A DNA stretch of 64,000 nucleotides from Acidimicrobiia bacterium. Lineage in GTDB: Bacteria > Actinomycetota > Acidimicrobiia > Spongiisociales > ZC4RG35. Under the pieces are notes generated by a model. It made no database searches, was not told where the DNA came from, and saw only the letters and a list, made by a program, of their open reading frames with translations. The translations under genes and the position numbers were made by a program. Of this stretch, positions 2,615 through 10,753 are shown in pieces. The stretch's first letter is position 1; each line of letters begins with the position of its first letter. The DNA lies in contig DATBMA010000023.1 of assembly GCA_036555105.1 (NCBI GenBank), positions 3,786 to 67,785 on the forward strand, written 5' to 3'.

Positions 2615-4291
2615 GTGACCGGCCGGAGACCCGGCGCCGTGGCTCGCTGGTGGGCACGCACCAAGCCGCAACCCGGCACCTTCCGAAGCGAGCTCCTCGC
2701 CGGGCTCCCCGGCGCTCTCGGCAGTGTCCCCGACGGGATGGCGTCGGGTGTCCTGGCCGGCGTGAGCCCAATACATGGCCTCTACGCCAGCATGGCCGGG
2801 CCGATCGGGGGCGGGCTGGCGTCGAGCACGCAGCTGATGGTGATCGCCACCACGAGCGCTGCAGCGCTCGCCTCCGGATCTGCGATCGCCAGGCTCGATC
2901 CCCAAGGGCGCGAATCGGCGATCGTCCTCTTGACCTGGATGGCGGGAGCGTTGATGGTGGTTGCCGGCCTACTCCGGCTGGGAAGGCTCACCCGCTTTGT
3001 TTCCTATTCGGTGATGCTGGGGTTCCTGACCGGCGTCGGGTTCAACATCATCTTCGGCCAGCTCCCCGACCTGGCCGGCGTCGCCGCCCAAGGCAGTACC
3101 TCGGTGGCCAAGGCGATCTTCGTGCTTACGCATCTGGGCGAGGTCCACCTGGCTTCGTTCCTGACCGGACTTGCCACTCTGGCAATCCTGTTCGGGGTCC
3201 ACCGCACCCGGTTTCGCTCCTATGGCGCGCTCTTGGCATTGATTGTCCCGACGGTCATCGCTGCCCTGACCAATGCCGAAGTCGCGATCGTGTCCGATCA
3301 GGGTGAGATCCCGGCTGGACTCCCATTGCCGGCTCTTCCCGACCTCTCGGCCTTCAGCCTCGATCTCCTGGCCGGCGCCGTGGCGGTGGCCGCCATCGTC
3401 CTTGTGCAAGGGGCGGGTGTGGCCGAGGCGGCTCCGAATCTCGACGGCTCACGTTCCAGATCCAACCAGGACTTCATGGCCCAGGGAGTCGGGAATCTCG
3501 CCTCGGCCGCCTTCAAGGGCCAGCCGGTGGGGGGCTCGGTAGGGCAGACCGCCCTCAATCGGGCAGCAGGAGCGACTACCAGGTGGGCGTCGATCCTCTC
3601 CGGCGTTTGGATGTTGTTGATCCTCGTGTTCTTCGCCGGGCTGGCGGGGACGATCGCCATGCCCACGCTGGCTGCAATCCTCATCTACGCCGCGATCGGA
3701 TCGTTCAAGCCCGGGGAGATCGCGACCATCTGGCAGACCGGCCCCAGCTCGCAGATCGCGATCGTGACGACCTTCATCAGTACGCTTTTCGCACCCATTG
3801 CGCTGGCGGTGCTGATCGGTGCCGCCCTGTCGATGCTGCTGCAGGTCAACCGGGACGCGCTCGATCTCACCCTCCGACGAATCGTGCCGGAGGATGGACG
3901 GTTTCGAGAAGAGGTACCGCCGAAGCGGTTGGAGACCAGGACCGTGACGATGCTCGACATCTACGGGAGCCTCTTCTTCGCCGGGGCGAGGACCCTCGAG
4001 GTCAACCTCCCCGACCCGATCGGCAGCGAGAGGCCCGCGGTCGTCGTCCGGCTCAGAGGCCGCACGGCTTTGGGAGCTACGGCTCTGCGGGTGCTGTCGG
4101 TGTATGCCGAGCATCTCGATCGGGTCGGAGGACGGCTTTACCTGTCTGGTGTGGATCCTGAGCTGGTGACCCAGTTCGAGCGCACTGGCATCGCCGACAC
4201 CGACGCCATGGTCCTTTTCGCGGCGGGGGAGTACCTCGGCGAGTCGAGCATGGCCGCCTACGAAGCGGCTGAGCGATTCGTCGCGGGCTGA
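2615..4291 (+). CDS. SulP-family inorganic anion (sulfate) transporter with C-terminal STAS domain
   Basis: 558 aa, ~11 TM segments, conserved SulP N-terminal motif LAGLPGALGSVPDGMASGVLAGVSPIHGLYAS and a C-terminal STAS-like tail; GTG start. Confidence 0.85.
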   Translation: MTGRRPGAVARWWARTKPQPGTFRSELLAGLPGALGSVPDGMASGVLAGVSPIHGLYASMAGPIGGGLASSTQLMVIATTSAAALASGSAIARLDPQGRESAIVLLTWMAGALMVVAGLLRLGRLTRFVSYSVMLGFLTGVGFNIIFGQLPDLAGVAAQGSTSVAKAIFVLTHLGEVHLASFLTGLATLAILFGVHRTRFRSYGALLALIVPTVIAALTNAEVAIVSDQGEIPAGLPLPALPDLSAFSLDLLAGAVAVAAIVLVQGAGVAEAAPNLDGSRSRSNQDFMAQGVGNLASAAFKGQPVGGSVGQTALNRAAGATTRWASILSGVWMLLILVFFAGLAGTIAMPTLAAILIYAAIGSFKPGEIATIWQTGPSSQIAIVTTFISTLFAPIALAVLIGAALSMLLQVNRDALDLTLRRIVPEDGRFREEVPPKRLETRTVTMLDIYGSLFFAGARTLEVNLPDPIGSERPAVVVRLRGRTALGATALRVLSVYAEHLDRVGGRLYLSGVDPELVTQFERTGIADTDAMVLFAAGEYLGESSMAAYEAAERFVAG

Positions 4292-4321: not shown

Positions 4322-5239
4322 ATGAGGGGCCGGATCGTCCTTTCCTGGATCATGGTTGTGCTTGTCGGGATGACCGTGCCGCTGTCGTTGGCAGCGCTCT
4401 GGGTGCGATCGGAGCTGCTCAACACCGAGCGTTACGTGGCCACCGTGGCCCCGCTGGTCGACGACCCCGCCATCGTCGAGGGTGTGTCCACCAGAGCAGC
4501 GGGCGCCCTCACCGAGGCTCTCGGGGTAGGGACCAGGATCGAAGACGCCCTGCCCGAAGTGGGTGCAGTCGTGGGACCGGCCCTGGCCGACGCCTTCAAC
4601 GGCTGGATGGAGGGGGTGGTCGCCCAGGTGCTGGAGAGCGACCTGTTCGCTCGGGTGTGGATGGGCGCCAACCGAGCCGCCCACCAGGCGTTCGTGCGGG
4701 TGGTCACCGGGCCCCACGAGGGCGGGGCCGCCACGATCAACGAACAGGGAACCCTCGTGCTGGATCTCAACCCGGTGTTTGCCATGGTGAAAGACCGATT
4801 GGCCCAATCCGGGTTCACCGGTCTGGACCGGCTATCGCTCGACAACCTGAGTCTCCAGTACGAGCTGTTCACGCTCGAGGCAATCCCCGGCGCCAGGAAG
4901 GCGGTCGAGACCCTGCAGACCCTGGCCTGGGTGCTTCCCGTCGTCGCGATCCTCGCTGCGGTGGCGGCGACCATGACCGCCGGCAAGCCCCGTATCTGGA
5001 TCCGGCGGGTGTTCGCAGCAGTGGCCATCGGGTCGCTGGTCCTGTGGCTGGTGCTGGCCTGGGTCGGGTCCTCTTACCTGGCCGACACGCCGGCGGCGGC
5101 GGCCGCCTTCGAGACGATCGCTTCCCTGCTGTTGACTGCAGCGAAGGTCGCCACCGCAATCGGGGTGGTCGGTTGGCTGGTGGCGCTCGTGTTCCTGCGG
5201 CCCCGCGCAGCCGAAGTCAGCGGGGTGTCCCCACCCTGA
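4322..5239 (+). CDS. hypothetical integral membrane protein
   Basis: 305 aa with N- and C-terminal TM helices and strong third-position GC bias; 3' end overlaps the convergent patatin gene by 23 nt. Confidence 0.5.
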   Translation: MRGRIVLSWIMVVLVGMTVPLSLAALWVRSELLNTERYVATVAPLVDDPAIVEGVSTRAAGALTEALGVGTRIEDALPEVGAVVGPALADAFNGWMEGVVAQVLESDLFARVWMGANRAAHQAFVRVVTGPHEGGAATINEQGTLVLDLNPVFAMVKDRLAQSGFTGLDRLSLDNLSLQYELFTLEAIPGARKAVETLQTLAWVLPVVAILAAVAATMTAGKPRIWIRRVFAAVAIGSLVLWLVLAWVGSSYLADTPAAAAAFETIASLLLTAAKVATAIGVVGWLVALVFLRPRAAEVSGVSPP

Positions 5240-6176
5240 TGAGATGGCGCTCGATCGGGCGCCAGACCTCGGGGTGAGTCAGAACCCGCTTCATCCCCCT
5301 CAACGCCCGGATGAAGGTGGGGACGGCAGAGTCGGCATCCATTGGATTCGGCCTCATGGCCGCCAGCGTGGCCGCGGTAGGAGTGATCACCACCACGTCG
5401 CAGCTGGGCCAGGCGGAGCGGATCATCGCCACCTCCTCGTCGAGATATCTACGGCCCACCCGGTCGAACATGCGCTCGTGGAACCAGGCGCCACGCCTCT
5501 CCAACTCCGATGCCATGGGGGCGAATATGAGGACGAGGTCGAGAGGGGCGTCGCTGCCGAGCACGAGGTCGGCATTGGTCCCCGAGACGATCCCACCGTC
5601 GACGTATAGGCGGTCATCGATCCGAAACGGGCGGAACAGCACCGGTATCGCAGAGGAGGCGGCGACGGCGTCGGCCAACCCGACATCGGGGGCGTCGATC
5701 GTCCCGAATGGGACACGCCGCTTGGCTGCCACGTCATAAGCCACTACCACGGTCGGGCTGTGGGGCCAGCTCTCGGCCTCGGCACCCACCTGCTCCCTTA
5801 CCCAATCGGCGATGCCATTGGCGTCGAACCTTGCTGGGGAACCAAGCAGCAATGTGAGGCCCGGGTTGCGAATCCCGGCGAGCAGCCCATGACGCACCCA
5901 TGTGGTCGGGTGTACACCAGGCCGCGCCCGATACACCTTCTCTCTGATCCGCTCGGCCACCGCTTCCCGCTCGTCGGTCGGCAGGACGAGTGCATCGAGG
6001 TCGAGGCGCCCATGACGGGCGAGCGAGGCAACGAAGGAGCCGGATGAAGTTCCAACGATCACATCGGCCTCATGAGGAGTCCAGCCGGTCGCCAATTCGA
6101 GCGCCATCAATGAAGCGATCTCGAAGGCGGCACCGGTGATGCCCCCTCCACCGAGCACGAGCCCTACCGCACTCAT
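5217..6176 (-). CDS. patatin-like phospholipase
   Basis: GGGITGAAF oxyanion motif, GTSSG nucleophile elbow and a downstream DGG motif; start moved to the MSAVG Met (complement 6174-6176) because residues upstream of it are not conserved. Confidence 0.8.
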   Translation of the reverse strand: MSAVGLVLGGGGITGAAFEIASLMALELATGWTPHEADVIVGTSSGSFVASLARHGRLDLDALVLPTDEREAVAERIREKVYRARPGVHPTTWVRHGLLAGIRNPGLTLLLGSPARFDANGIADWVREQVGAEAESWPHSPTVVVAYDVAAKRRVPFGTIDAPDVGLADAVAASSAIPVLFRPFRIDDRLYVDGGIVSGTNADLVLGSDAPLDLVLIFAPMASELERRGAWFHERMFDRVGRRYLDEEVAMIRSAWPSCDVVVITPTAATLAAMRPNPMDADSAVPTFIRALRGMKRVLTHPEVWRPIERHLIRVGTPR

Positions 6177-6202
6177 ACCTCGAGCCAGCCTAGGTATCGG
6201 AG

Positions 6203-7117
6203 ATGCACAAGCTGCGACCATGTGCACTCGTTACCTTCTGTCCGGTGGAGCTGCGCCCGGCCACGAATGAGGATCGCGCCGCCCTGACCGCCCTGGCCCA
6301 TCGAGTCGCTTCGGCAGACGGCCTGCCGGCAGTGGGGGAGCACCTGATCCCCGATCTCGACGAAGCCGACCTGGGCGGCGGCATCTTGGCTTGGGAAGGT
6401 GCAGACCTGGTGGGTGCGGCAGTGCTGGTGGATTTGATCGACCCGGGTTGGTGGGGCCTCGAAGTGATGCTCGACCCCGACCACCGTGGTGAGAACCTGG
6501 TGGCGGCGCTGGTCGACCGGGTGCTGGAGGGGGATTCTCTAGAGAGTGGAAAGGGGGTCAGGGCATGGGCGCACCTGGATCTGGTCGCATCTGCCCTGAC
6601 CACCCGGGGATTCAGGCAGAGACGTGCAGTCCAACAGTTGGGTCGGTCCCTGCCGGCAAATCCACCTGAGGCGGTAGCCGATGTGTCGTGGGATCCCTAT
6701 CGGGAGGGCGATCTCAGTGATCTTCTGGGCCTGCACAACCGGGCTTTTGCCGGAGGGGGTGGAGCGGAGGGCTGGACCGAGGTCGAGCTGAGGCGTCGAA
6801 TGGGCCTCCGATGGTTCCGGGCTGAGGGCCTCATCATCTGCAAGCAGGAAGGGACGCCGATCGGTTATTGCTGGACCAAGCGGCACAGTTCGGCGGTCGG
6901 GGAGATCTATGTGATCGCGATCGATCCTGGTGCCGCCGGCCGGGGCTTGGGAAGGCAGCTGTTGCGACGAGGCCTCGAGCACCTGACGGGCGAGGGCTGC
7001 GAAAGAGCGATCGTCTACGTCGACGACCAAAACCGGCGAGCGATCACCCTATACGAGTCGGAAGGGTTCACCCTCAATCGGACCGAGCGTGTCTTCGAGA
7101 GGGCGACGAGCGCCTAG
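6203..7117 (+). CDS. mshD: mycothiol synthase (mycothiol acetyltransferase) with tandem GNAT domains
   Basis: Two GNAT domains aligning to mycobacterial MshD (HNRAFAGGGGAEGWTEVELRRR; CWTKRHSSAVGEIYVIAIDPGAAGRGLGRQLL); alternative GTG start at 6245 would leave a 69-nt divergent spacer from patatin. Confidence 0.75.
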   Translation: MHKLRPCALVTFCPVELRPATNEDRAALTALAHRVASADGLPAVGEHLIPDLDEADLGGGILAWEGADLVGAAVLVDLIDPGWWGLEVMLDPDHRGENLVAALVDRVLEGDSLESGKGVRAWAHLDLVASALTTRGFRQRRAVQQLGRSLPANPPEAVADVSWDPYREGDLSDLLGLHNRAFAGGGGAEGWTEVELRRRMGLRWFRAEGLIICKQEGTPIGYCWTKRHSSAVGEIYVIAIDPGAAGRGLGRQLLRRGLEHLTGEGCERAIVYVDDQNRRAITLYESEGFTLNRTERVFERATSA

Positions 7118-7311
7118 CCGAACCTCCGAAGGCAGCCGGGGCAGCGGGAGTCTTCCGCTCTGGTGGACGTGAAGCACCATGGGCATGGAAGATCGTCGTC
7201 GCCCGGGTCCACCGTCAACTGCAAGATCGGTCCGGGTGAGTCACGCCTGCGGCCGCGCGCCAACGCGACCAAACCACCGGTGGCGGTGACCGCCAGCAAC
7301 GCTTCGAGCAC
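7114..7311 (-). CDS. candidate 65-aa membrane-anchored zinc-ribbon mini-protein
   Basis: Minus-strand ORF with GTG start (complement 7309-7311) preceded by a GAGGAGGAGG SD run; hydrophobic N-terminus LEALLAVTATGGLVALA; C-terminal CPWC-x10-CPGC zinc ribbon; third-position GC ~80%; lies downstream on the same strand as the APH-like gene; stop overlaps the mshD stop in a CTAG palindrome. Confidence 0.3.
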   Translation of the reverse strand: MLEALLAVTATGGLVALARGRRRDSPGPILQLTVDPGDDDLPCPWCFTSTRAEDSRCPGCLRRFG

Positions 7312-7418
7312 GCCTCCTCCTCGTCCTCGCCTGCTGTCGAGCGTAAGGCTGGGCAGGCGCGGATTGGTGGATTTCGCGTTCTAGCCAGGATTCGCGTGAA
7401 CCCCGAGGGCGAAGGAGA

Positions 7419-8261
7419 TCAGGCGGCGCCGACTGCGTCGGCCAGCGCGGCTCCGAGGGGGGCGAGGTCGTGAAGCCTCCCGTCACGGTTCTCGGCCGCA
7501 TCGAGCATCAACATGGCGGCGTGGTAGGCGATCCAGGGCTGCAGCCTGTCGGTCGAACCGCTGTAGCCGTAGCCGCTGCGGAAGTCTTCCGCCGCCTCGT
7601 CTCCGAGCTTGCTCTGGAGGCGCCAAGAGGCCAGCGACAGGTCCCATTCGGGCGGGGCAAGCGTCGCCCACTCCCAGGCGATGAGGGTCACCTTCCCGTC
7701 CTCGTTGATGAGGAAGCGCTCAGGGGTTGGACGGGTGTGGGCGGGACGTGCCGGGCTCGGCTGCGGTGGCGGGGCCTCGGCCGCGGCATCGAGCACGCTC
7801 TGGTCGAGCCCCAGACGGCGCCGAAAACGCCCAAGCCGCTCGATGGTCGACAGGTAGTGGTTCTCCACTCCCGAGCCGATCCCCTCCTCGAGGTTGGTGA
7901 TCTTGGCCTCGGTGTCGTGGACCCCGCGCAGGACCTGGCCGGCCCGCTTGAGGATCTCGGCGTTGTAGGGAAGGCTGGCAAGGCTCCACGTCCCGGCATC
8001 GGTCATCAAGAGCCAAGAGGTGCCGTCGACGTTGCCGCGGTGGAGGATCGCAGGCACTCCGGAGGTGCCGGCCAAAGCTTCGAGAGCGTGGCGCTCACGC
8101 CGCTCGCGCGAGACCATCGGGTAGATCTTGAGGATGGTGCTGACGCCGGTCTCTTCGAGAAGGCGGTACACCGAATTGTCGGTTGTGCTGCCCTCGGTTC
8201 CGCTCAACCGGCGGTAGGTGGCGGTTCCCGAGATCGATCTGATGAGTGCTTCGATGTCCAT
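7419..8261 (-). CDS. phosphotransferase-enzyme-family (APH-like) kinase
   Basis: 280 aa with the APH/choline-kinase-like architecture: nucleotide-binding N-lobe (ILKIYP), Brenner-like segment (LINEDGKVTLIAWEWATL) and a C-terminal DLSL motif. Confidence 0.65.
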   Translation of the reverse strand: MDIEALIRSISGTATYRRLSGTEGSTTDNSVYRLLEETGVSTILKIYPMVSRERRERHALEALAGTSGVPAILHRGNVDGTSWLLMTDAGTWSLASLPYNAEILKRAGQVLRGVHDTEAKITNLEEGIGSGVENHYLSTIERLGRFRRRLGLDQSVLDAAAEAPPPQPSPARPAHTRPTPERFLINEDGKVTLIAWEWATLAPPEWDLSLASWRLQSKLGDEAAEDFRSGYGYSGSTDRLQPWIAYHAAMLMLDAAENRDGRLHDLAPLGAALADAVGAA

Positions 8262-8339
8262 GTTTGGCTCTCGGTATTGGGTGCGGGCAGGTGGCAGGCG
8301 CGGAGTACCCTGCCGGCTTCAGGCTAGCGAGTAGGACCC

Positions 8340-10274
8340 GTGGCACTAGACCTTGTGTATCCCGACGGGGCCACGGCCGCCTTTCCGGACGGAACTACCG
8401 GGCGATCCGTGGCCGCATCGATCGGGCGACGGCTCGCCCAAGCCGCGGTCGCAGTGAGGCTCGATGGCGAGCTGTTCGACCTCGACCGACCGCTCCCGGG
8501 CAGTGGGAAGTTCGAGGTGGTGACCGACACCTCCGACGACGGCCGTTCGGTCCTCCGCCACTCCGCAGCGCACATCCTGGCGCAGGCAGTACTGGGGCTG
8601 TTCCCGGGAGCCACTTTCGCAATCGGTCCCGCCATTGCGGACGGCTTCTATTACGACTTCGACATAGGGCGCCCCTTCACCCCCGACGACCTGGCGGCTA
8701 TCGAGGCGCGGATGTCTGAGATCGTGGCGGGGGATCAGCCATTCGTCCGGGAGTCGGTGGGTCGCCAGGAGGCATTGGAGATCTTCTCCGACCACCCGTT
8801 CAAGCGAGAGATCATCGAAGGGGTCGAGCCGGGCGAGGTCGACGACGGCTCCGAAGTCACGCTTTACCGAAACCTCGACTTCGTCGACCTCTGCAGAGGT
8901 CCTCACCTGCCTTCGACCGGGAGGCTGGCTGCCTTCAAGCTCCTGCGCACGGCCGGTGCGTACTGGAGGGGGGACGAGAGTCGCCAGCAACTCCAGCGCA
9001 TTTATGGGACGGCCTGGGAGAGCGAGAAGGCACTCGGCGACTATCTGCTGAGGCTGGAGGAAGCCGAGAAGCGCGATCACCGCCGTCTGGGGCCGGAGCT
9101 CGACCTCTACAGCTTCCCCCGTGCGCTCGGTCCCGGGTTGCTCGTCTGGCATCCGCGCGGAGGCATGGTGCGCAAGCTCATGGAGGACCACTCGCGCCGC
9201 CTTCATGAGCGGTTCGGCTTCGAGTTCGTGAGCACTCCGCACGTGGCCCGCGAGGAGCTCTGGGAGATCTCTGGCCATCTCGGCTACTACGCCGAGAACA
9301 TGTACCCGGCCATGGAGGCCGACGACGGCGAGCGTTATCGGATCAAGCCGATGAACTGCCCAGGGCATATCCTCATCTATCAGAGCAAGAGCCGAAGTTA
9401 TCGGGACCTCCCGATGCGCCTCTCCGAGCTCGGCGCGGTCTACCGGTACGAACGGTCGGGGGTGGTGCACGGAGCATTGCGGGCTCGGGGATTCACCCAG
9501 GACGACTCCCATACTTTCTGCACCCGCGATCAGCTGCCGTCTGAGCTGGGGCGCCACCTCAAATTCGTCATGACCTGGCTGCGGGATTTCGGCTTCGAGG
9601 AGTTCGAGGCCGAGCTCTCGACCAAGCCCGACAATTCGGTGGGTGAGGCCGAGCTGTGGGAGGTTGCCGAGCGCGAGTTGGAGGCCGCCCTCAAGGATGC
9701 CGGCCTCGACTACCGGGTGGCCGCGGGCGAGGGGGCTTTCTACGGGCCCAAGATCGATGTGCACGTGAAGGATGCGATCGGGCGTAAATGGCAGATGTCG
9801 ACGGTGCAGCTCGACTTCGGTCTGCCGGAGCGATTCCAACTCGAGTACACGGCACCCGACAATCATCCGGCCCGGCCGGTGATGATCCATTGCGCCAAGG
9901 CCGGATCGATCGAACGGTTCATGGGGGTCCTGGTCGAGCACTACGCGGGCGCCTTCCCGATGTGGCTGGCCCCGGTGCAAGTCACGGTGGTGCCGGTGGC
10001 GGATCGCCATTGCCAGTACGCCACTCAAGTGGCTACCCAGCTCCGCGAGGCCGGGCTCAGGGTGGAGGTGGACGGCGGTGACGACACGGTTGGCGAGAAG
10101 ATCCGGCGGGCACTGACCCATAAGACCCCGGCCGTGCTGGTGACCGGGGACAAGGACGAGTCGGCTGGGACTGTCGGGATGCGCAGGTACGGTGAGGAGG
10201 AAGAGCGGCGCGGCGTGAGGTTGGATCAGGCGATTCAGGAATTGACCGACTCTGCCCGATCGCCCGGGGACTGA
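8340..10274 (+). CDS. thrS: threonine--tRNA ligase
   Basis: 644 aa; TGS/editing N-domain with HSAAHILAQAV, class II core motifs and a C-terminal anticodon-binding domain; GTG start. Confidence 0.95.
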   Translation: MALDLVYPDGATAAFPDGTTGRSVAASIGRRLAQAAVAVRLDGELFDLDRPLPGSGKFEVVTDTSDDGRSVLRHSAAHILAQAVLGLFPGATFAIGPAIADGFYYDFDIGRPFTPDDLAAIEARMSEIVAGDQPFVRESVGRQEALEIFSDHPFKREIIEGVEPGEVDDGSEVTLYRNLDFVDLCRGPHLPSTGRLAAFKLLRTAGAYWRGDESRQQLQRIYGTAWESEKALGDYLLRLEEAEKRDHRRLGPELDLYSFPRALGPGLLVWHPRGGMVRKLMEDHSRRLHERFGFEFVSTPHVAREELWEISGHLGYYAENMYPAMEADDGERYRIKPMNCPGHILIYQSKSRSYRDLPMRLSELGAVYRYERSGVVHGALRARGFTQDDSHTFCTRDQLPSELGRHLKFVMTWLRDFGFEEFEAELSTKPDNSVGEAELWEVAERELEAALKDAGLDYRVAAGEGAFYGPKIDVHVKDAIGRKWQMSTVQLDFGLPERFQLEYTAPDNHPARPVMIHCAKAGSIERFMGVLVEHYAGAFPMWLAPVQVTVVPVADRHCQYATQVATQLREAGLRVEVDGGDDTVGEKIRRALTHKTPAVLVTGDKDESAGTVGMRRYGEEEERRGVRLDQAIQELTDSARSPGD

Positions 10275-10753
10275 TGGACGGCATCGAGATACCCCGCGAG
10301 GTTGCGGACTCGGTCGACCTGCCGGGCGACCTCGACTCCAGCCAGGGTGGTCCCTATCGGTTTCCCGATCCACGCCGCCGTCGCATCTCGGCGGCGGTAT
10401 TCGTAGTAGCGGCTGCGGTCATGTGGTTCGTGATCCCGGCCGGGGTCGGCCGAATGGTGGCGATCGTCATCGCCCTCGGGTTGGCAGCCTGGAATGCGGC
10501 CGGAGCCTGGGAAGTGAAGGTCGATCAGGGGCGGGCGCTCTCACTGGCTGCCCCCGCCGCCCCCTTTGCGATCGGCCAGATCTCGGCGGCGCTGACCTTT
10601 CATGGCCTGCGGGCCCGACCCCGGTGGCACGTTCTCATATATGAGGCCTCGGATCCGCCCCGTCACCGGGCGCTGGTGGTCATCGACGCCATCACCGCCG
10701 CTCGGCTGGGCGAGCCGTTGGTGGAGACGCTTGGTGGGGCCGTTCGGGCCTGA
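10274..10753 (+). CDS. hypothetical small membrane protein
   Basis: 159 aa with two or three TM helices; ATG overlaps the thrS stop (TGATG); strong codon bias. Confidence 0.5.
   Translation: MDGIEIPREVADSVDLPGDLDSSQGGPYRFPDPRRRRISAAVFVVAAAVMWFVIPAGVGRMVAIVIALGLAAWNAAGAWEVKVDQGRALSLAAPAAPFAIGQISAALTFHGLRARPRWHVLIYEASDPPRHRALVVIDAITAARLGEPLVETLGGAVRA

Follow-up and report, generated by a model that had tools for sequence, protein, structure and literature searches.

A predicted membrane-anchored zinc-ribbon mini-protein encoded between an APH-fold protein and a patatin-like phospholipase in Acidimicrobiia

The 64-kb window analyzed here comprises 64,000 nucleotides of contig DATBMA010000023.1 from an Acidimicrobiia bacterium (GenBank assembly GCA_036555105.1, contig positions 3,786 to 67,785, renumbered from 1). 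On its minus strand, at positions 7114..7311, lies a 65-codon open reading frame (ORF) that ends in two pairs of cysteines. It is flanked by a co-oriented gene for an APH-fold protein (7419..8261, minus strand) and by a convergent gene for a GNAT acetyltransferase (6203..7117, plus strand), beyond which follows a patatin-like phospholipase gene (5217..6227, minus strand). The locus raises the question of whether so short a frame in G+C-rich DNA is a gene at all and, if so, what kind of protein it encodes and with which of its neighbors that protein would act. An earlier reading of the letters alone (the sequence-only reading) had proposed an unlisted zinc-ribbon mini-protein that could be a membrane-tethered, zinc-binding partner of the APH-family kinase. 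On balance, we lean slightly towards a combined reading in which the frame is a genuine Acidimicrobiia gene for a membrane-anchored zinc ribbon whose role would be that of an adaptor, with the patatin-like lipase, the APH-fold protein (a probable pseudokinase) or both as its partners.

Re-reading of the sequence agrees with the ORF as first described: it starts with GTG at 7311-7309, stops with TAG at 7116-7114 and translates into MLEALLAVTATGGLVALARGRRRDSPGPILQLTVDPGDDDLPCPWCFTSTRAEDSRCPGCLRRFG, with the cysteine motif CPWC-x10-CPGC. The coordinates follow from the ORF listing and fit homologues of 60-80 amino acids. The Shine-Dalgarno (SD) run that had been noticed in front of the start is present as well (GAGGAGGAGG, 7313..7322, minus strand), at positions -11 to -2 relative to the G of the GTG and thus slightly closer than the 5-13 nt originally given. 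The size of the ORF is unremarkable by itself, with 51 ORFs of at least 40 amino acids within 6 kb and a window DNA of 66% G+C. Its G+C content at third codon positions (0.80) resembles that of the neighboring genes, which is weak coding evidence in DNA of this composition, where chance ORFs abound.

The relatives of the protein carry the argument. A word-indexed search returned 14 close homologues of 60-69 amino acids, and where these are named they are called 'hypothetical protein' in metagenome-assembled genomes of Acidimicrobiia or Actinomycetota, so that homologues of a frame reported as unlisted in the window are annotated elsewhere. When one genome per species was scanned with a sequence pattern, 208 genomes proved to contain relatives, and the best 80 of these were examined at the level of the locus; the fetched loci are almost all titled Acidimicrobiia, taxon names here and below being those of the record titles. 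In an exhaustive search of 1.84 billion representatives, 167 clusters at 50% identity match the family profile at an E value of 1e-3 or lower. The family appears to be confined to Acidimicrobiia, and no paralogue is present within the 64-kb window. Among the small-gene relatives, an SD-type AAGGAGGAC is conserved approximately 3-8 nt 5' of the start, the start itself is conserved and gives M-[LFIV]-E, and all close members end in FG followed directly by the stop codon. For 81 distinct coding sequences, the median ratio of nonsynonymous to synonymous substitution rates (dN/dS) is 0.14 (NG86, 449 pairs), and the codon-position entropies are 0.64, 0.49 and 1.35, the third position being more than twice as variable as either of the other two. 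This selection signal belongs to the small gene itself, since its overlap with other frames is at most 4 nt and it is equally conserved in loci that lack the GNAT gene. Taken from sequence comparison, it is as good as certain that 7114..7311 is a genuine gene under strong purifying selection.

The predicted architecture is simple. Across 60 divergent members, residues L41, P42, C43, W45, C46, T50, D54, C57, C60, F64 and G65 are invariant and M1, E3, D40 and P44 nearly so. The hydrophobic N terminus and four-cysteine C terminus first described are borne out, both cysteine pairs being retained throughout. The conserved residues 41-65 (7117..7191, minus strand) form a predicted Cys4 zinc ribbon, LPCPWC-x3-T-x3-D-x2-C-x2-C-x3-FG, that lies flush with the C terminus and is recovered by AlphaFold2 (AF2) and Foldseek. 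The 17-20 N-terminal residues are free to diverge in sequence and retain their hydrophobicity: the best 17-residue Kyte-Doolittle window has a mean of 2.18 and reaches at least 1.6 in 58 of the 60 members. Hydropathy and AF2 thus agree on a predicted transmembrane helix at residues 2-20 (7252..7308, minus strand), followed by an RGRRR basic stretch. The part after the helix has a mean net charge of +1.3, and the residues preceding the ribbon are acidic. In the AF2 model of the monomer built from the 60-sequence alignment, the predicted local distance difference test (pLDDT) score is 85-89 for the helix and 90-92 for the ribbon, and the linker at residues 21-40 is of low confidence. We are fairly confident in a modeled architecture of a single-pass N-terminal anchor, a variable linker that is first basic and then acidic, and a 25-residue Cys4 zinc ribbon. 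The predicted topology is N-out/C-in with a cytoplasmic ribbon, as suggested by the positive-inside rule, by the fact that cysteines must be reduced for zinc binding and by the acidic residue 3, which recalls N-out proteins inserted by YidC. In the clade of the window protein, the transmembrane sequence is unusually conserved (LEALVAATATTGLFALA) and rich in small residues (AATATTG), a pattern that suggests specific helix packing.

The ribbon resembles two known kinds of zinc-binding domain and matches neither outright. No Pfam or NCBIfam model reaches its threshold on the window protein. The sequence-only reading had likened the protein to zinc_ribbon_2, now PF13240 (Zn_Ribbon_1), a family of CPxCG-x(~10)-CPxCG ribbons often joined to membrane-spanning segments. 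The resemblance holds in that PF13240 is the commonest sub-threshold family among relatives (11 of 15 match, best E value 0.0016, all below the 27-bit gathering threshold); the window protein itself, however, has no PF13240 match at E values up to 10. Both have the two-knuckle Cys4 arrangement with 10 residues between the knuckles, and in both the second knuckle is preceded by a conserved acidic residue and followed by an aromatic one; the tail of the family profile search also contains generic CPxCG-x10-CPxCG membrane proteins. Unlike PF13240 proteins, the family has its own signature (DLPCPWC...T.E.D..C..C...FG-COOH), an anchor at the N rather than the C terminus, a fixed C terminus and a fixed genomic context. 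When the AF2 ribbon was compared with the Protein Data Bank (PDB) using Foldseek, the best matches were RanBP2/NZF zinc fingers (for example, Nup153 ZnF3, 3gj4 and 7mo3), with probabilities of 0.98-0.99 and a root mean square deviation of 1.1-1.4 Å over approximately 26 residues; the E values, at 0.14 or higher, are non-significant for so short a domain. The C-x2-C-x10-C-x2-C spacing is identical, and RanBP2/NZF modules dock proteins (Ran, ubiquitin) or bind RNA, which is the type of role proposed here. In contrast to the RanBP2 signature W-x-C-x2-C-x3-N-x6-C-x2-C, the small protein has its Trp inside the knuckle (CPWC) and Thr50 in place of the Asn; RanBP2/NZF fingers are eukaryotic and there is no sign of common descent. 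A sequence search of solved structures with the family profile gave only insignificant matches to C2H2, IFT and SUZ12 zinc fingers.

The small gene also carries a conserved element of its own. It is separated from the APH-like gene by 107 nt (7312..7418), as the sequence-only reading had it, compared to a median of 76 nt among relatives. Invariant in the aligned spacers are AAAT[AC]C and a second block, TAnnnT (most often CTTAGCCTC); exactly 23 variable nucleotides separate the two in all 72 of 72 spacers, and the second block lies 26-30 nt before the start codon. In the window, the element spans 7340..7374 on the minus strand (AAATCC at 7374-7369, TACGCT at 7345-7340) and ends 28 nt upstream of the start codon. 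In 761 kb of related loci, the pattern AAATCC-N23-TAnnnT has 80 occurrences, each a short distance 5' of the small gene and on its strand; not one occurrence away from the small gene, as a wider regulon would give, was found in these 761 kb. In the 64-kb window, the match at 7340-7374 is the only one, versus 1.5 expected at up to one mismatch. The element is retained in loci without the APH-like gene, and its distance to the small gene stays at approximately 63 nt in loci with 1-1.4 kb inserted after the APH-like gene. An RNA element in the 107-nt spacer was considered and rejected: RNAalifold predicted 0 pairs on 28 spacers, and the whole window has no Rfam match at gathering thresholds. A DNA-level element is favored since neither a consensus RNA fold nor an Rfam match was obtained.

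The simplest reading of this pattern is that of a dedicated promoter. TAnnnT is the usual actinobacterial form of the -10 hexamer; in that position it would leave a 5' leader of approximately 20 nt, and AAATCC, at about -41 to -36, would more likely act as an upstream element or as the site of a regulator than as a canonical -35. Such a promoter would drive the small gene, plus the lipase gene where no GNAT gene intervenes. We know of no characterized promoter recognition in Acidimicrobiia. A scan of positions 5000-8600 for the sigma-70 consensus gave no promoter, and an intrinsic-terminator scan of the same region gave one weak site, inside the GNAT gene and not above chance. The spacer of the window, which is longer than usual, also contains at 7381-7395 (minus strand) a further, degenerate version of the upstream block (GCGAATCC), located 16 nt ahead of the conserved GCGAAATCC.

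Searching the relatives' loci with five proteins of the window (tblastn) returned nearly everywhere the same order, thrS(-), APH-like(+), small gene(+), optionally GNAT(-), patatin(+), written with the small gene as plus; gene calls on individual contigs agree. The order of the trio holds down to members approximately 35% identical in the small protein, while the flanking genes other than thrS differ. The reciprocal test started from 80 metagenome loci picked through the APH-like protein, 67 of them with enough flanking sequence. Here the small gene was present in about 64 of the 67 loci: within 700 nt in 58, after an inserted gene in 5 and as a variant without the hydrophobic segment in 2, with 2-3 loci having none. 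The conservation of ORF and cysteines in syntenic relatives, suggested earlier as a check, was found.

Some features of the neighborhood stand apart from this order. Separate lineages carry different inserts between the APH-like and small genes (L112:1880-3200 and L126:3888-4745; also L128, L151/L058 and L164); judging from their translations, a 345-amino-acid ORF among them looks luciferase-like-oxidoreductase-like and a 285-amino-acid ORF methyltransferase-like. Directly 3' of thrS and overlapping its stop, the window has a hydrophobic ORF of 159 amino acids without a Pfam match (10274-10753, plus strand), and relatives have an ORF of 155-162 amino acids, likewise without a Pfam match, at the same position. 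Several contigs of the same synteny, whose ThrS is 60-70% identical to that of the window, are titled 'Acidobacteriota', 'Acidobacteria' or 'Gammaproteobacteria' (L004, L006-L008, L010, L018-L020, L022, L024, L025, L031, L037, L039, L047, L060 and L075); these are probably mislabeled or mis-binned Acidimicrobiia.

The APH-like neighbor is a member of its fold (PF01636, 50.4 bits versus a cut-off of 23.2) with an unusual active site. Of 73 orthologues, 70 have Lys, Arg or His for the catalytic-loop Asp and 66 have Lys for the loop Asn; the window copy reads HTR for HxD and Arg for the Asn. The Mg-binding Asp, kept in 71 of the 73, is Ala in the window copy (IAWEW for IDWEW). Lys45 and Glu56 of the ATP site are conserved. 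The only sequence match of the APH-like profile among solved structures is choline kinase LicA (PDB 4r77; E value 2.8e-6), to which the catalytic-loop and DWE regions align. LicA reads HID..EN where the APH-like family reads HTK..EK, and with HTK...K in place of HID...N the catalytic base is absent from the family. As judged from these residues, the neighbor is probably catalytically inactive, and the pattern fits either a pseudokinase that binds nucleotides or an enzyme of a non-canonical type.

The patatin-like protein, by comparison, appears intact. It matches PF01734 at 80.9 bits (cut-off, 27.7), and its translation contains the GGGxxG oxyanion motif (as GGGGITG), GTSSG with the GxSxG serine and DGG with the DG[GA] aspartate. 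In GNAT-less relatives the patatin gene follows the small gene, and the distance from the small-gene stop to the possible patatin start has a median of 53 nt in 57 such loci, an operon-like spacing. The proposal of a kinase partner therefore holds only in part: co-conservation with the APH-like gene is clear, and an active kinase is not what the catalytic residues indicate. Given the separate promoter-like element and the gap of approximately 53 nt in GNAT-less genomes, the patatin lipase is at least an equally good partner candidate.

We tentatively propose, with the balance of probability still somewhat against it, that the small protein acts as an adaptor. The zinc ribbon would serve as a protein-docking module, and the protein would hold or regulate the soluble patatin-like lipase at the membrane, the site of its substrate; alternatively or in addition, it would dock the APH-fold protein there, which is most likely a scaffold that binds nucleotides without catalysis. 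A precedent for the logic is SafA with sortase (PMC9282373): SafA, a conserved, small single-pass membrane protein whose gene neighbors that of an enzyme, is reported to bind its partner by way of a short conserved motif and to modulate this enzyme at the membrane. The two systems share neither sequence nor domain, SafA has no zinc ribbon and its partner is another enzyme, so that the analogy is one of logic only. An extension, which we regard as unlikely, would join the pseudokinase, zinc-ribbon protein and patatin into one regulated membrane-lipid hydrolysis module core to the Acidimicrobiia. In such a module, the mini-protein would tether the lipase, the nucleotide-binding, non-catalytic kinase fold would be the switch and the class-wide promoter AAATCC-N23-TAnnnT would be read by a specific sigma factor or regulator.

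Several observations weigh against the anchored-adaptor reading. An AF2 model from 15 close sequences, later replaced by that from the 60-sequence alignment, comprised the ribbon but no helix and left residues 1-25 unmodeled, and in the clade of the window the helix is borderline hydrophobic (Kyte-Doolittle 1.6-1.8; summed Hessa value of approximately +2 kcal/mol). Some members, among them those at L097 (~3600-3800) and L139 (~2520-2720) and the proteins P0025, P0030, P0034, P0039 and P0041, lack a hydrophobic N terminus and keep the DLPCPWC ribbon intact; such members may be soluble variants, or their starts may have been called wrongly. The 23-nt distance between AAATCC and the hexamer is unlike the standard -35/-10 spacing. 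Loci L005 and L011 keep thrS, the small gene (5001-5204) with its upstream element and the GNAT gene, and the APH-like and patatin genes are absent there. Conversely, L161 (903-1021) and L169 (2907-3079) have a divergent APH-like gene (45% identity) and, immediately behind it, the convergent GNAT gene; no room is left for the small gene, which has apparently been lost. On account of these exceptions, partnership with the APH-like and patatin proteins is not obligatory in cis. Among the top 150 profile hits, the ribbon is never fused to an APH or patatin domain, the long proteins in that set being generic multi-ribbon membrane proteins or low-complexity artifacts. Finally, distance matrices give partial correlations of 0.76 between the small and APH-like proteins and 0.66 between the small and patatin proteins; this does not separate the two partners, and the correlation may merely reflect similar evolutionary rates.

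The exceptions at L005 and L011 also speak for a different explanation, namely, that the small protein is independent of its neighbors, for example as a homo-oligomeric membrane protein or as a membrane-tethered ribbon that is regulatory or binds nucleic acid, and that the gene order reflects a stable thrS neighborhood. The dedicated upstream element and the unrelated genes inserted behind the APH-like gene in several lineages point the same way, the conserved, small-residue-rich AATATTG segment of the window clade would fit helix-helix packing, and RanBP2-type ribbons are also capable of RNA binding. Such independence is nevertheless doubtful, because the trio persists to approximately 35% small-protein identity while flanking genes other than thrS change, the spacing to the patatin gene is operon-like and loci chosen through the APH-like protein nearly always have the small gene. 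It is improbable that the mini-protein instead serves an active APH-family kinase as partner or substrate, phosphorylated, for instance, on the invariant Thr50. Co-orientation, near-universal adjacency, the invariance of this ribbon Thr and the conserved ATP-binding Lys45 and Glu56 would suit this idea. The substitutions of the catalytic Asp and Asn described above, together with the lost Mg-binding Asp of the window copy, do not, and a promoter-like element lies between the two genes. Thr50, moreover, stands where RanBP2-type ribbons have a conserved Asn (C-x3-N); that Asn plays a structural role, so Thr50 is likely structural as well.

Two further explanations concern the protein and the frame themselves. 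The 17-20 hydrophobic N-terminal residues, followed by small ones, could be taken for a cleavable signal peptide that exports a disulfide-bonded Cys-rich domain. This is very improbable, since there is no positive n-region, the protein begins M-L-E with a nearly invariant acidic residue and has its positive charges after the helix, and the CPxC-x10-CxxC geometry of the knuckles agrees, as does the AF2 model, with cytoplasmic zinc ribbons. A chance, unexpressed frame, to which the frequency of random ORFs of this size in the window might point, is effectively refuted by the dN/dS of 0.14, the Cys4 motif, the conserved SD, start and stop, the 208 species genomes and the gene-specific upstream motif; its remaining probability is negligible.

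The convergent gene at 6203..7117 encodes a two-domain, MshD-like GNAT acetyltransferase, an assignment based on Pfam and TIGR03448. Where present, it lies between the small and patatin genes as an optional insertion; the window protein finds no tblastn match in most related loci. Its earlier naming as mshD is plausible but falls short of the threshold for that name: the match to TIGR03448 (E value 1.2e-44, model positions 7-291 of 294) scores 152.8 bits, below the equivalog cut-off of 163.1. The longest GNAT ORF, from the ATG at 6203, overlaps the start of the divergent patatin gene (6227) by 25 nt (6203-6227). The TIGR03448 match begins at residue 21 and relatives of the GNAT protein are 263-298 amino acids long; the true start is therefore probably downstream of 6203.

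At its other end, the GNAT TAG (7115-7117) and the small-gene TAG (7116-7114) share the palindrome CTAG (7114..7117). The shared coordinates are as reported earlier, but the overlap is not as unusual as it had been called, since stop spacing in GNAT-bearing relatives ranges from overlap to wide gaps. The stops abut directly in TGATCA in 11 loci, are 2-10 nt apart in about 14 and 57-60 nt apart in 3; one locus has a 31-nt overlap, with the small protein extended at its C terminus. The 4-nt CTAG overlap of the window is one state of this tight tail-to-tail compaction. It is incidental, given that most loci have no GNAT gene, and without evident function.

None of the PADLOC defense-system models matches the small, APH-like or GNAT proteins, and the patatin shows generic phospholipase-effector similarity only (E value 5.6e-7 over 33 residues). 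A literature search found nothing on the small-protein family or on the trio of patatin, pseudokinase and zinc ribbon. The fold and the general kind of protein, a small membrane-tethered zinc ribbon, are known; as far as our tools show, the family, its signature, the fixed trio and the dedicated upstream motif are undescribed.

Small proteins are under-annotated, and this family, for which neither Pfam nor NCBIfam has a model, is found in practically all sampled members of an actinobacterial class that is large and for the most part uncultured. A family model would allow its annotation, the 'kinase' label of the neighbor is corrected and the CTAG stop overlap loses its special meaning. The rigidly spaced, gene-specific motif offers a handle on promoter recognition in Acidimicrobiia. 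The position of the small gene between a kinase fold without its catalytic base and an intact patatin provides a testable idea of how a potentially membrane-damaging lipase may be placed or restrained in these bacteria.

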